The notes beneath the pieces were generated by a model that worked only from the letters and a program-made list of their open reading frames with translations, was not told where the DNA came from and made no database searches. From positions 1 through 41,027 of the forward strand of contig JBBRXE010000002.1 in the NCBI GenBank assembly GCA_038248695.1: a stretch of DNA of 41,027 bases. The letters are read 5' to 3'. This DNA comes from Candidatus Limnocylindria bacterium (GTDB lineage: Bacteria; Chloroflexota; Limnocylindria; QHBO01). The position numbers and the translations under genes are program-made. How positions within the stretch are numbered: the first letter of the stretch is position 1; each line of letters opens with the position of its first letter. Below, piece after piece: positions 12,507 to 29,502 of the stretch.

Positions 12507-13595
12507 TCAGCCGTAGCTTCGCACATACGGCCTGAGAGCTGGCAGGACAGCCACCCCGCGATCATCAAGCGCCGCCAGGGCCTCCTCGTCGCACAGGCAG
12601 CCCGGCGTCAGGATGGGCGCAGAGGGCGCAGAGGGCGAGCGGGCGATGGCCGGCAGATCACGCGTCGAGCGCATGCTCGCGCCGTCCGACCACGGAGCCC
12701 CGAGCGGGTCGCGCCGAAGCTGCTCGTCGATGGTGGTAAGGACGCTCAAGGCGGGTGACAGCCGAGCGTGAGCCTGCGCCTGCTCATGTAGCGTGCGCGC
12801 TCGGCGAGGCGACTCGACCACGAACCCGACATTGATCGACAGCCTCGGATCTGCGCTGAAGATCGACCGATAGCGGCGGATCTTCTCGCCCAGGTCGTCG
12901 CCCCGCTCGGTGCCCAGATCACGCTCGACGAAGAGCGCGATGACTCGGTCTCGGACGCGGACGACGGCCAGCGCATCGGGTCGCAGGAAGCCGCCGAAGA
13001 GATGGCCGCAGGCGCGCTCCGGCACCCAGGCCACCAGACCTTCGGCAGCCAGCGGGTCGGCGTGGCGCAAGAAGGCGGCCAGCAGGTCCAGGGTGGCGAG
13101 CTGGTGGATCGGTGCCGAGGCCGGCAGGTCGGGCGGCCGTTCAGGACGGCCCGCAGGCCATTGCAACCGCTCGATGTCCGAACGCGCGGTGCGCGTCAGG
13201 ACGTACCCGTAGCGGCCGCGTGGTCGGTGGGCACTGGCGCTCCAGAAGCCGTGCAGCAGACCCAGCGCCACCAGCCGTCGCAACCGCCGCTGGGCGGTGC
13301 GCAGCTGTCGGTAAATGAGGAGCGAGGCCAGCTCGGCGCTGGTGATATCGGCCACCAGCAGCCACTGCAGCAGGTAGCGGTCACGCAGCGGCAGGCCGGT
13401 CCAGACGGCCCCCGCCCGCGTAGAGCGCAGCGAGTCGGAGTTGGACGTCGAGCGCTGCCGAGCACGAAATGGTGTCACGCTCATCGCCGCCCAAGTGTCG
13501 TGGATGGCGGTCTCGGTCGCGGTCGTGACCGCGGTCTCGGTCGCGACACGTGGACCACGACCCTCATGCGAGCCTCCCGAGCCCATCGCGCGCAT
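12507..13595 (-). CDS. Replication-relaxation family protein (winged-helix; candidate relaxosome/relaxase component)
   Basis: In the track ORF, LPLRDRYLLQWLLVADITSAELASLLIYRQLRTAQRRLRRLVALGLLHGFW...GRYGYVLTRTA is typical of this family. It lies directly downstream of the coupling protein. The true start may be the ATG at 13484 (MSVTPF). Confidence 0.75.
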   Translation of the reverse strand: MRAMGSGGSHEGRGPRVATETAVTTATETAIHDTWAAMSVTPFRARQRSTSNSDSLRSTRAGAVWTGLPLRDRYLLQWLLVADITSAELASLLIYRQLRTAQRRLRRLVALGLLHGFWSASAHRPRGRYGYVLTRTARSDIERLQWPAGRPERPPDLPASAPIHQLATLDLLAAFLRHADPLAAEGLVAWVPERACGHLFGGFLRPDALAVVRVRDRVIALFVERDLGTERGDDLGEKIRRYRSIFSADPRLSINVGFVVESPRRARTLHEQAQAHARLSPALSVLTTIDEQLRRDPLGAPWSDGASMRSTRDLPAIARSPSAPSAPILTPGCLCDEEALAALDDRGVAVLPALRPYVRSYG

Positions 13596-15759
13596 CGGAC
13601 AGGCGCCGCACCAGGGCTGCCGAGCCGAGGCTGGGCGACTCGGGCAGGACGTCGGCGGTCAACACCCGCGCCTCGCCGTCGAGCTCGGTCCGCAGCGCCA
13701 TGCGGAAGCGCGGCAGGTTGAGCAGATCGCGCTCGGTCAGCGGCGCGAACTCGTCGCGCAGCAGGCGCGCGTCGTCGGCCGAGGGCTGCAGCAGCATGAG
13801 CGTCGCCACGTTGGCCCGGATCGAGCGCTGCAGCTCGCGTCCCAGGGCGTCGAGGTACTGGGTGGCCATCACCAGGCGCAGGGCGAACTTGCGACCCTCG
13901 GCCGAGATGCCGCGCAGCGAACTGGTGTCGAAGTTCTGCACCTCGTCGACGTACAGCGTGTGCGCCACGCGCTGCTCCGGAGGCAGTCCCTGGCGTCCCA
14001 GGGCGTCGACGTAGTAGCGGGCGATGAGCAGGCCGCCGAACAGCCAGGCGTTGTCGCCGCCGGCGCGCGACAGGTCGACCAGCAGCACCTCGCCTGCGTC
14101 CATGATGGTGCGCGGCCGGATGGTCGACAGCGGCGCTGAGACGATGGCCCGGATGGATGGGTAGGAGAGGAAGGCGCCAAGCTTGCTGATCAGCGCATCG
14201 GCCGATGGATCGCTGGCGCCGCGCCGGCCCTTGGGCCACTGGTGCTCCCAGAAGGCGGTGACCGTCGGGTCGCTGGCGCCGGCCAGCACCTCGGCCCGGA
14301 AGCCGGGCTCGATGAACAGGCGGTTCAGCGACTCCAGGGTCCAGGGCTCGTCGAGCGCCGGCTTGGTGAGCAGGGTCAACAGCGCCGAACGCAGGTACTG
14401 CAGCTGGCGGTGGGGCGGCGCGGATAGGTGCGCGAAGTACAGGTCGCGCATGGTGTCCACGAACTGGGCGGCCACCATCTCCGGATCGGCGCCGCCGAGC
14501 TCGATCGGGTTGAAGCCACGCGGGTGCTCCTTTTCAGCAAGCTCCAGGAGGTGGACGCGCGGCGCCTGCGCGGCGGGCACCGCGTCGAGCAGGCGGGCAA
14601 CCGCGTCGCCGTGGGGGTCGACGAAGGTGAAGCCGCGCCCGGCGCGCAGGTCGTCGGCGGCCAGGGCCACCAGCTCGGTGCTCTTGCCCGAGCCGGTCCG
14701 TCCCAGCAGCACCAGGTGCCGCTCGAACAGGCGCTCGGGCACCCGCACCGCCCGGCCGGCATCCAGGCCGATGGCGCGCAGGCCCGGGGCAGCGGCGATC
14801 AGCGGCGCCGGCAAGCGCCGGCTGCGCACGACCTCCACCGCGCGCTCCGCCGACCCCGCTCCCGACAGGCCCCACAGCTCGGCCAGATCGCCGGGGCCAA
14901 GACGCATCGACGCCGAGCGGCCGCCGACCTCAGCGCTGATGCGCCAGCCGCTGCTGCGCAGGGTGGAGAGCGCGCCGATGGCGTCGAACAGCCAGGCGCG
15001 CAGCGCGGCGGCGGGCGCGCCCCAGGCCTCCAGGCTGGCGCTGACCGCGAAGCTGGGGCCGGCCGACGGCGCGACCGATGCTGGTCGAGGTGGCGGCACC
15101 CGTTGCGAGGACCGGTTAAGGGCCGCGTCGAGCAGCAGCGCGCCCCAGCCCGGCCGGTCGCCCGCGACGCTCCCGGCCCCGTCGGGCTGCGGCCAGATTT
15201 GGAGCAGCCACGCCGCGCCCGCACCGGCCGGCAGTCTTGCCAGGAGCTCGACGCAGATGGCGCCGAAGTCGGCGGCTGCGCTGCTTGGCGCCTGCGGCGG
15301 TTCGCCGCGCACGCCCAGTCGCAGGCGGCCGAGGCGGCTGGCGGCTGGCTCGATCGGCTCCAGCTCGGCGCCGGGAAAGGCCGCGGCGACCGCAGCCTCC
15401 ACGGTGCGTGACAGCTGGCGCGGCGCCTCGATCTCCCAGTGCGCCCGTCCGCCGCTGCAGCACAGGGCCAGGCTCAGGCCCGGCCAGCCGCTGGCCCAGC
15501 GCGACACGCCGCGGCGGTTGCCCGGATGGAGTGCCGCCACCAGCCGCCGGCCGGCATCGGCATCGCGGGCGTTGGCAACGTCGGGGCGCAGCAGCCAGCG
15601 GACCTGCTCGCGCTCGAGCGCACGGTCGTATGCGCGCTGGCGCAGGAGGCCGACCAGGCGCGGCGCGACGGCGGCGCCGGCAACCATGAGCAGCAGCCCG
15701 CCACCGAGGGTGACGAAGGCGCTGAGCAGGTCGGCGAGAGGGATGAGCGTGGGATTCAT
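13564..15759 (-). CDS. virD4: Type IV coupling protein (VirD4/TraG/TraD-like ATPase), 731 aa
   Basis: It has an N-terminal transmembrane segment. Walker A is VLLGRTGSGKST, followed by FVDPHGD. Walker B is TLYVDEVQNF, and the C-terminal TraG/TraD-type region is SAEGRKFALRLVMATQY. Confidence 0.8.
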   Translation of the reverse strand: MNPTLIPLADLLSAFVTLGGGLLLMVAGAAVAPRLVGLLRQRAYDRALEREQVRWLLRPDVANARDADAGRRLVAALHPGNRRGVSRWASGWPGLSLALCCSGGRAHWEIEAPRQLSRTVEAAVAAAFPGAELEPIEPAASRLGRLRLGVRGEPPQAPSSAAADFGAICVELLARLPAGAGAAWLLQIWPQPDGAGSVAGDRPGWGALLLDAALNRSSQRVPPPRPASVAPSAGPSFAVSASLEAWGAPAAALRAWLFDAIGALSTLRSSGWRISAEVGGRSASMRLGPGDLAELWGLSGAGSAERAVEVVRSRRLPAPLIAAAPGLRAIGLDAGRAVRVPERLFERHLVLLGRTGSGKSTELVALAADDLRAGRGFTFVDPHGDAVARLLDAVPAAQAPRVHLLELAEKEHPRGFNPIELGGADPEMVAAQFVDTMRDLYFAHLSAPPHRQLQYLRSALLTLLTKPALDEPWTLESLNRLFIEPGFRAEVLAGASDPTVTAFWEHQWPKGRRGASDPSADALISKLGAFLSYPSIRAIVSAPLSTIRPRTIMDAGEVLLVDLSRAGGDNAWLFGGLLIARYYVDALGRQGLPPEQRVAHTLYVDEVQNFDTSSLRGISAEGRKFALRLVMATQYLDALGRELQRSIRANVATLMLLQPSADDARLLRDEFAPLTERDLLNLPRFRMALRTELDGEARVLTADVLPESPSLGSAALVRRLSDARDGLGRLA

Positions 15760-29212: not shown

Positions 29213-29502
29213 GCCTGGTCGTCGGTCACGAGCAGGTCGTGCGGTAGCGGGCCGACGATGACGTCGAGCGACTCCCCGCGCCAGGTGAGTCGAATCGGTC
29301 GGCGGCGGGCGCGCAGCATGCCGCGCCGCAGGTCGTCGCGGAAGGAGGTGATCGACTGGGTCCGGCAGCGCTCGCCGGGAACCATTCGACGCAGCATGGC
29401 CCATGGCTGGCCGTGCCGCAGGACCACCACGGTTTCGCCCGCTGCGGCGTGCGCCGCGATGTCCGCCATGCGACGCCTGAGAGTCCTGACTGACACGACC
29501 AT
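29209..29502 (-). CDS. Phd/YefM-type antitoxin-like protein, 97 aa (first gene of the operon, apparently leaderless)
   Basis: VSVRTLRRRMADIAAHAAAGETVVVLRHGQPWAMLRRM fits the Phd/YefM N-terminal fold pattern. The ATG at 29502 lies 7 nt after the predicted -10. Confidence 0.65.
   Translation of the reverse strand: MVVSVRTLRRRMADIAAHAAAGETVVVLRHGQPWAMLRRMVPGERCRTQSITSFRDDLRRGMLRARRRPIRLTWRGESLDVIVGPLPHDLLVTDDQA

Follow-up and report, generated by a model that had tools for sequence, protein, structure and literature searches.

An operon of uncultured Chloroflexota in which genes of a conjugative type IV secretion system and of a Tad pilus are interleaved

Contig JBBRXE010000002.1 of the Candidatus Limnocylindria bacterium assembly GCA_038248695.1, a metagenomic contig whose entire 41,027 bp form the window analyzed here, carries an operon that combines genes of a conjugative type IV secretion system (T4SS) of the monoderm type with genes of a Tad pilus. 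The gene content of this operon, the fixed order in which the two sets are interleaved, the fusion of a VirB3-like domain to a TadZ-like ATPase, and the long-term co-inheritance of the two sets are established, and the roles of the components are predicted from their sequences. On balance, we lean toward the view that the operon is the conjugative transfer module of a family of mobile elements in Chloroflexota, in which the Flp pilus would serve as a mating-contact device that is assembled together with the DNA channel.

Composition of the operon

The operon comprises 18 genes that all run in one direction on the minus strand, from position 29502 down to position 12507. This layout, proposed in an initial annotation of the window, was borne out by the listing of open reading frames (ORFs) and their translation, and the stop/start overlaps reported at the time are all present on the minus strand, i.e., ATGA at 29209-29212, 27107-27110, 25644-25647, 20888-20891, and 18971-18974, GTGA at 16767-16770, and TGATG at 21916-21920. 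Further overlaps exist between the genes for CpaF and TadB (10 nucleotides) and between those for the coupling protein and the relaxase (~32 nucleotides). Elsewhere, the intergenic gaps measure 2-13 nucleotides, with the largest one, of 84 nucleotides, separating the hydrolase and coupling-protein genes. The initial annotation had placed all these genes behind one predicted promoter. Consensus scans of the operon, which are uninformative, revealed neither a sigma-70-type promoter nor a convincing internal terminator; judged from the gene packing, a single promoter for all 18 genes is plausible. The GC content of the operon is 70-78% vs. 61-69% in both flanks.

The fifth gene (25644-27110, minus strand, like all genes of the operon described below) encodes a protein with matches to both PrgI and CbiA, in which a PrgI/VirB3-like domain is fused to a CpaE/TadZ-like ATPase of the MinD/ParA type. 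An alignment of 12 orthologues revealed a conserved N-terminal PrgI/VirB3-like domain with two transmembrane (TM) segments at residues 1-95, a variable linker of about 100 residues, and a conserved MinD/ParA-type ATPase with the motif FAGGVGKTT at about residues 200-470. When each of the 12 orthologues was searched individually, PrgI (best match 1.9e-7) and CbiA were both found in every one of them, so that the fusion noticed initially in the window is a constant feature of these proteins. A structure search matched MinD structures, and the MinD/ParA-type P-loop lies directly upstream of the CpaF gene. The N-terminus is PrgI and not the receiver-like domain that is usual in TadZ. A HMMER scan of 1.84 billion representative sequences yielded 147 matches, including ~12 full-length fusions with 40-71% identity. 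A wider spread of the fusion was considered and rejected: the distant full-length match that was sampled (P0408, locus L055) is an ordinary CpaE-type ATPase (CbiA/AAA_31), which adjoins a T2SSE gene and comes without a PrgI domain and without a T4SS. Since this relative is found next to a T2SSE gene in the absence of PrgI and a T4SS, the ATPase half of the fusion is, by homology, CpaE/TadZ-like, and its fusion to VirB3 appears specific to this module family.

The presence of a monoderm-type conjugative T4SS is supported by profile searches. The putative VirB2-like pilin (28215-28613) matches PF18895 T4SS_pilin (3.6e-7) and, weakly, TrbC, and has a signal segment and two hydrophobic segments. 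It is followed by a polytopic membrane protein (27107-28210) with about 6-7 TM segments in its hydropathy profile. This protein has no match in Pfam, and it was classified as VirB6/TrbL-like on the basis of its topology and an hhalign comparison with a TrbL_4 protein of an Embleya plasmid (90% probability, E 1.6e-6); support for this assignment is moderate only. The VirB4 ATPase (16767-18974) matches conju_CD1110 (1.9e-51) and VirB4_CagE (4.7e-30) with scores below the NCBI equivalog cut-offs, and P-loop_TraG and AAA_10 with scores above the Pfam cut-offs; its best NCBIfam family is CD1110. Next is a bifunctional cell-wall hydrolase (15844-16770) with an SLT (5.8e-5) and a Peptidase_M23 (1e-27) domain. 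The VirD4-type coupling protein (13564-15759), which has an N-terminal TM segment, was identified by hhalign to the coupling protein of the Embleya plasmid (99.96%, E 4.9e-39, 637 columns), in which the domains T4SS-DNA_transf, TrwB_AAD_bind, and TraG-D_C are found; the direct Pfam matches of the window protein are weak, and TrwB (1e-8) is among its best matches in the PDB. The last gene of the operon (12507-13595) encodes a protein of the Replic_Relax family (PF13814, 6.1e-18). This family is equivalent to the MobC (MOB_C) relaxase superfamily (PMC5357655) and has a PD-(D/E)XK fold (PMC3424549), and membership of it identifies the protein as a predicted MOB_C-type relaxase. VirB7, VirB9, and VirB10 proteins are absent from the gene set of the module.

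Profile searches also support the presence of a Tad set, consisting of the CpaE/TadZ-like ATPase, CpaF, putative TadB and TadC proteins, Flp, TadE, a weak TadG-like candidate, and CpaB. The CpaF/TadA pilus ATPase (24346-25647; T2SSE 2.6e-41) shows 40-44% identity to annotated CpaF proteins. The TadB-like (23471-24355; four TM segments) and TadC-like (22554-23465; three TM segments) platform proteins have T2SSF matches below the Pfam cut-off (3.5e-4 and 9.6e-5, respectively), and their position, which is conserved in relatives, their size, and their TM pattern fit TadB and TadC. Hidden Markov models and profile comparisons agree with the initial assignments of VirB4, the coupling protein, and CpaF and, by way of these sub-threshold matches, with those of TadB/TadC. 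The candidate Flp-type pilin (22345-22548) is 67 amino acids long and contains the processing motif G/LTTLEYVI, which is invariant among 14 orthologues; it has no match to Flp_Fap in Pfam. Two putative pseudopilins follow, TadE (21918-22340; PF07811 TadE, 2.3e-9) and a TadF/TadG-like protein with a hydrophobic segment at its N-terminus and a weak match to Tad (21427-21918; PF13400, E 0.024). CpaB/RcpC (18971-19666; RcpC 1.3e-8, SAF 7.4e-5) is encoded at the end of the block, and its gene shares the ATGA overlap with that of VirB4. No prepilin peptidase (Peptidase_A24, TadV/CpaA) was found among the ~56 window ORFs that were scanned, and Peptidase_A24 is also absent from the precomputed Pfam lists of the related loci. 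To call the Tad module complete, as was done initially, was therefore an overstatement. A secretin was not found either among the window ORFs scanned, which fits a monoderm host.

Four further genes belong to the operon. Two at its head encode a small Phd/YefM-like protein of 97 amino acids (29209-29502; PhdYeFM_antitox E 2.8e-4, sub-threshold) and a protein of 197 amino acids with two such domains (28619-29212; PhdYeFM_antitox 2e-16, in two stretches); hence, the three domains of this type that had been noticed are present, one of them weak. The conserved module begins at the gene for the double-domain protein in all related loci that extend that far, and a homologue of the small protein is encoded at the equivalent position in most metagenome loci. 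The other two genes are located between those for the TadG-like protein and CpaB, and neither is a recognizable Tad gene. The first of them (20888-21424) encodes a bitopic membrane protein, for which an AlphaFold model (pLDDT 87) predicts a TM helix and an extracytoplasmic NTF2-like domain. This is a VirB8-like architecture, and Foldseek found NTF2-like folds, as expected from the initial designation as an NTF2-like anchor. A specific match to VirB8 was not obtained, with no VirB8-family structure present in the top 50 Foldseek matches. The second (19680-20891) encodes a putative secreted, adhesin-like protein with tandem Ig-like β-sandwich domains (AlphaFold pLDDT 84), for which Foldseek gave weak matches to repeats of adhesins, cadherins, and the FN3 type. 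It had been annotated as a PKD protein, a designation that must be abandoned: Pfam gave no match on the window protein, the repeats in the model are of a generic Ig-like kind, and PKD was seen only as a faint precomputed match in a relative.

Conservation of the module in Chloroflexota

When clustered at 90% identity, relatives of VirB4 number at least 198, those of the NTF2-like protein at least 207, and those of the Ig-like protein at least 391. The best 120 VirB4 relatives are all 65-87% identical to the window protein, and the named ones are assigned to Chloroflexota, Candidatus Limnocylindria, or Limnocylindrales. An actinobacterial origin, to which a GC content of about 72% had seemed to point, was rejected, as all close homologues with a name belong to Chloroflexota or Limnocylindria. 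When 185,579 species genomes were scanned, 44 loci were detected, nearly all of them in metagenome-assembled genomes (MAGs) of Chloroflexota. Several of these MAGs contain more than one locus, i.e., SKS1.bin7 (six), MnB_4 and MGR_bin130 (three each), and MFD02416.bin.1.132 (two). The relatives come from uncultured Chloroflexota of soil and freshwater.

For the analysis of synteny, all loci were searched by tblastn with the 18 proteins, and the genes called on four contigs of 0.44-1.3 Mb were inspected as well. The order from the Phd-type genes to the relaxase is colinear in ~30 independent genomic and metagenomic loci of sufficient length, with VirB4 identities of 60-88%; it starts at the second gene of the operon, or at the first where the DNA extended far enough. 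Further partial contigs agree in order. In none of the loci are the pilin, VirB6, and PrgI genes followed directly by VirB4; the Tad block is present in every relative that has the channel genes. Co-divergence was assessed by correlating, across loci, the identity of each protein to its window copy with that of VirB4, which is a rough proxy as it uses identity to a single reference. The correlation with VirB4 is high for CpaB (r = 0.98), TadB and TadC (0.95 each), the PrgI::CpaE-like fusion (0.94), and CpaF (0.88), but not for the coupling protein (0.45) and the relaxase (-0.02). Two divergent variants of the coupling protein exist, with 36-40% and 58-75% identity to that of the window, respectively, and the identity of the relaxase varies from 26 to 78% without tracking the divergence of VirB4. 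Hence, the DNA-processing pair appears to be exchanged between elements, whilst the Tad core stays with VirB4.

The initial annotation had considered the position of the Tad block, between genes for VirB3- and VirB4-like proteins that are normally adjacent, as an argument against chance adjacency. Indeed, a recent insertion of the Tad block is ruled out by the synteny across loci. The invariant order, the conserved fusion, and the co-divergence indicate that the block is an old and fixed part of the module. Moreover, the CpaB gene is the last of the block and overlaps that of VirB4, whereas it is the first in the Tad clusters of Embleya and Arthrobacter; this displacement to the end suggests that the block was reorganized and is not a dropped-in cassette.

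A few loci deviate from the compact arrangement. In L012, ~7.6 kb is inserted between CpaB (at 20) and VirB4 (at 8384), and in L016, ~5 kb is present between the end of VirB4 (about 12160) and the hydrolase gene (at 17045). In addition, 9-11 loci have a 6.5-kb short form with only the genes for VirB4, the hydrolase, the coupling protein, and the relaxase, with sharp homology edges in unrelated contexts; they include L031, L032, L034, L019, L017, and L036 (about 9900-16500 in each). Some of these copies are intact and some are broken. L031, L032, and L034 form a VirB4 clade of their own, and other short forms nest between full ones. Nothing convincing was found when the edges of the short modules were inspected for repeats; at the junction between the coupling-protein and relaxase genes, three tandem 12-nucleotide repeats are present in L031 (15404-15445) and L032 (15402-15441), with a different unit in each. 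The short forms may be mobilizable derivatives that use the channel and pilus of a full copy in trans.

Proposed role, mobility, and cargo

In the reading that we favor, the relaxase would nick the DNA of the element, and the coupling protein would pass it on to a channel containing VirB4 and VirB6. The Flp pilus, driven by CpaF, would catch a recipient and draw the cells together, and thus act as a mating-pair-forming device, possibly assisted in recipient capture by the Ig-like surface protein. Through the fusion protein, which would bind VirB4 with its VirB3 half and position the Tad motor with its TadZ-like half, pilus and channel would be assembled at one site. Transcription of the operon is likely regulated by the Phd/YefM-type proteins encoded at its head. 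The identifications of the T4SS, relaxase, and Tad components, their conservation, the mobile-element behavior of the module, and the precedents of type IV pili in conjugation discussed below all argue for this reading. As to mobility, the same module recurs in different genomic contexts and in several copies, with up to six loci in one MAG, decayed and truncated copies, and some loci on contigs of 0.5-1.3 Mb; its flanks are not related from one locus to the next, and restriction-modification, TIR, DUF4062, and transposase genes abound in them. A functional integration of both gene sets, as suggested initially, is supported by gene order, fusion, and co-inheritance; the role of the pilus, as contact device or as conduit, is what we infer from them.

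Several considerations weigh against a mating-contact role in a mobile element. The argument is built on sequences from uncultured hosts. An integrase gene, origin of transfer (oriT), attachment (att) site, or tRNA gene could be found neither in the window nor, in relatives, up to ~10 kb from the module, which makes mobility an indirect deduction; the contig has no tRNA gene anywhere, its ends show no terminal overlap and no circularity, and PLSDB contains no known plasmid that matches it closely at the DNA level. As a prepilin peptidase is lacking in the window, pilus assembly would depend on a host gene, and the proposed TadB, TadC, TadG, and Flp proteins were recognized from weak or sub-threshold matches together with their position. 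The module encodes a VirB2-like pilin of its own, so that contact might not require a second filament, and intact short copies (VirB4, hydrolase, coupling protein, and relaxase) exist without Tad or channel genes. Finally, Tad loci often travel on plasmids as adhesion cargo, e.g., on an Arthrobacter plasmid.

More intimate connections between pilus and T4SS can be envisaged. Conceivably, though we doubt it, both constitute a single chimeric nanomachine, in which the fusion protein docks a VirB4 hexamer onto the CpaF/TadBC motor and the CpaB ring and Flp filament cross the wall. If so, it would represent a new class of mating-pair formation, with a type IV filament as a structural part of the secretion system rather than as an accessory adhesin, and the Tad apparatus would supply the wall-crossing route for DNA that is otherwise missing in monoderm T4SSs. 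It is unlikely that the Tad apparatus is a conduit in a two-step process, in which VirB4 and the coupling protein first move the relaxase-DNA complex across the membrane, after which its passage through the wall into the recipient would be mediated by the Tad platform, CpaB ring, or Flp filament. The VirB3::TadZ-like fusion, the translational coupling of CpaB and VirB4, and their co-divergence (r = 0.98) are consistent with such a process, as is the lack of a recognizable wall-spanning component of the VirB8/TcpC type, and a model of this kind was described for PAPI-1 (PMC12857230). However, a conventional route exists in the form of the VirB6-like channel protein and the VirB2-like pilin, type IV pili are not known to conduct DNA outward, and the sequence does not separate a conduit from a contact role.

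In a further reading, which we consider quite improbable, the pilus and the T4SS would be independent machines that are inherited together, and the pilus would be cargo of the element that serves adhesion or biofilm formation and takes no part in transfer. It is true that Tad pili are the commonest type IV filaments on plasmids and that a stand-alone Tad cluster is found on Arthrobacter plasmid pYA7-1b, which is conjugative according to MOB-suite. But cargo normally varies, whereas the Tad block is invariant here whilst the flanks turn over; it lies among the T4SS genes, is fused to VirB3, and follows the divergence of VirB4 more closely than the relaxase. Very improbable, lastly, is a machine for DNA uptake or bidirectional exchange, as in archaeal Ced/Ted, Helicobacter ComB, and the Tad-dependent competence of Micrococcus, or for contact-dependent effector delivery or killing, as in Myxococcus Kil: VirB4 and VirB6- and VirB2-like proteins also form the core of Ced/Ted (CedB gave a weak match), transformation of Micrococcus luteus reportedly involves Tad pili (PMC8467076), and the Kil Tad pilus cooperates with another secretion apparatus (PMC12075869), but the coupling protein and MOB_C relaxase in the same operon point to export of nicked DNA, the multi-copy, decaying, context-variable loci resemble selfish elements, and no ComEC-like or effector genes are present within the module.

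The backbone of the element probably extends beyond the relaxase gene. At the left edge of the window (1-2097, minus strand), a helix-turn-helix (HTH) protein, a ThiS-like protein, and a conserved protein of ~260 amino acids are encoded, which, considering the synteny in relatives, are probable further backbone components: at least 12 loci have homologues with 50-94% identity at a distance of 2-6 kb downstream from the relaxase gene. In relatives, this set is located directly behind the relaxase gene, together with further small genes and a ThiF/E1-like gene; in L007 (17439-21210), it extends to the ThiF/E1 gene. In the window, ~10 kb of inserted cargo displaces it to the edge. The ThiS/ThiF set looks like a ubiquitin-like conjugation module traveling with the transfer operon; a PADLOC search of the ThiS/ThiF neighbors gave only a weak E1-E2 match. 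The cargo between the relaxase gene and the ThiS set (2740-11659) encodes an IS256/Mutator transposase (2740-4224), which is not conserved beside the module, a MazG-like protein (4249-4725), a Type IIG/ISP restriction-methylase in two overlapping ORFs (5969-8353 and 8308-9243), which is probably frameshifted, a DEDDh exonuclease (9475-10686) that matches the candidate defense family PDC-S48, and a hypothetical protein of 322 amino acids.

On the other side of the operon, the upstream flank (31882-40316) includes genes for an ABC ATPase and a fragment of a KAP NTPase, an N-terminal fragment of IS481 (32631-33128), and a pair encoding a Gp49/HigB-like protein and an HTH protein (33185-34172). 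It also contains a metal-resistance cluster with genes for a CDF transporter (35683-36843), ArsR (37235-37645), SCO1/SenC (38546-39298), and the copper chaperone PpoB2 (39636-40316). The corresponding region upstream of the Phd genes is variable in relatives, with Type I HsdR/HsdM, a pentapeptide-TIR protein, and DUF4062 as recurrent elements; defense-type genes are found there in L052 (1-1538), L062 (7045-8586), L063 (6164-8164), L087 (6713-7774), and L067 (2914-4104). These genes suggest that the operon head is a cargo hotspot. The module is likely a major route for the exchange of genes, including defense, restriction-modification, and metal-resistance cargo, in Limnocylindria, an abundant and little-studied lineage of soil and freshwater.

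Comparison with known systems

Partnerships between T4SSs and other machineries are known: a review of 2025 covers hybrid T4SSs that cooperate with type IV pili or ESX systems (PMC12857230). The type IV pilus of R64 aids mating in liquid, and that of PAPI-1 is essential (PMC12857230); TP114 is similar to R64 (PMC9045228). In view of these cases and of the Sulfobacillus backbone discussed below, the initial statement that T4SSs and Tad pili are separate machines was too strong. Like the module described here, the IncI plasmids R64 and TP114 combine a T4SS, which is Dot/Icm-like, with a type IV filament on one element, and this filament, a type IVb thin pilus, promotes contact between donor and recipient. 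They differ in that they reside in diderm hosts, in that the pilus carries PilV adhesins and is dispensable on surfaces, and in that its genes form a separate cluster without any fusion between pilus and T4SS proteins. In the module discussed here, the T4SS and filament genes are located in the same operon, and the latter are of the Tad type and not of type IVb with PilS/PilV-type pilins and PilQ/PilR-type machinery. PAPI-1 of Pseudomonas aeruginosa resembles the module in being viewed as a chimeric T4SS/type IV pilus transfer system, with VirB4 and VirD4 (PMC12857230), but it has a diderm host, a type IVb pilus, and few recognizable T4SS channel genes, whereas the module contains a full monoderm T4SS set, a Tad (type IVc) filament, and VirB3 fused to a TadZ-like ATPase. 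Thus, one protein would covalently link a T4SS core subunit to a pilus-positioning ATPase, which offers a concrete model for the coupling of type IV filaments to T4SSs; an equivalent coupling was proposed, and not resolved, for PAPI-1.

Among monoderms, plasmids pL15/pY0017 of Sulfobacillus thermotolerans and an integrated region of strain Kr1 have a backbone with T4SS and T2SS/Tad homologues (PMC6803676). Its genes encode MinD-like, CpaF-like, and TadB/C-like proteins, a relaxase, TraG, VirB4, and a lytic transglycosylase (PMC6803676). The host belongs to another phylum, and no Flp, TadE, CpaB, fusion, or interleaving was reported in the published description, which is a gene list. Plasmid pTZC1 of C. 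acnes was considered as another carrier of both systems and rejected, as it contains a T4SS only. A literature search yielded no description of an interleaved T4SS-Tad operon, of a VirB3::TadZ fusion, or of conjugation in Limnocylindria.

The nearest annotated relatives of VirB4 (35% identity), the coupling protein (33%), and the relaxase belong to actinobacterial plasmid T4SSs and are encoded on the linear plasmid of Embleya sp. NBC_00896. The gene order there is TrbL, PrgI, a small gene, VirB4, coupling protein, Replic_Relax, and an NlpC/P60 hydrolase. Hence, PrgI is unfused and near VirB4, which supports the premise that VirB3 normally abuts VirB4, and the Tad cluster is separate and starts, as usual, with CpaB. 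On this plasmid (NZ_CP108778.1, 274-300 kb; loci L002/L003), the full Tad cluster is co-directional with the T4SS genes, at a distance of ~6 kb, and ends in a BTAD regulator. This arrangement could represent the same partnership in a looser form, without fusion, or be coincidental; in a Streptomyces relative, no CpaF is encoded within 15 kb.

The monoderm T4SSs of Firmicutes with a CD1110-type VirB4, like those of pCF10 and Tn916, share with the module a PrgI protein, a hydrolase combining SLT and peptidase domains, and the absence of VirB7, VirB9, and VirB10. They differ from it in using surface adhesins and not pili, in having no Tad genes, and usually also in lacking a VirB2-like pilin (PMC12102498). 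How conjugation in monoderms finds and holds recipients and brings DNA across thick walls is poorly understood, and the known examples use surface adhesins. Standard classifiers of mating-pair formation would probably call two separate systems in the operon described here, which, in contrast to these examples, appears to represent a large natural family with a retractile Tad pilus hard-wired into a T4SS operon.

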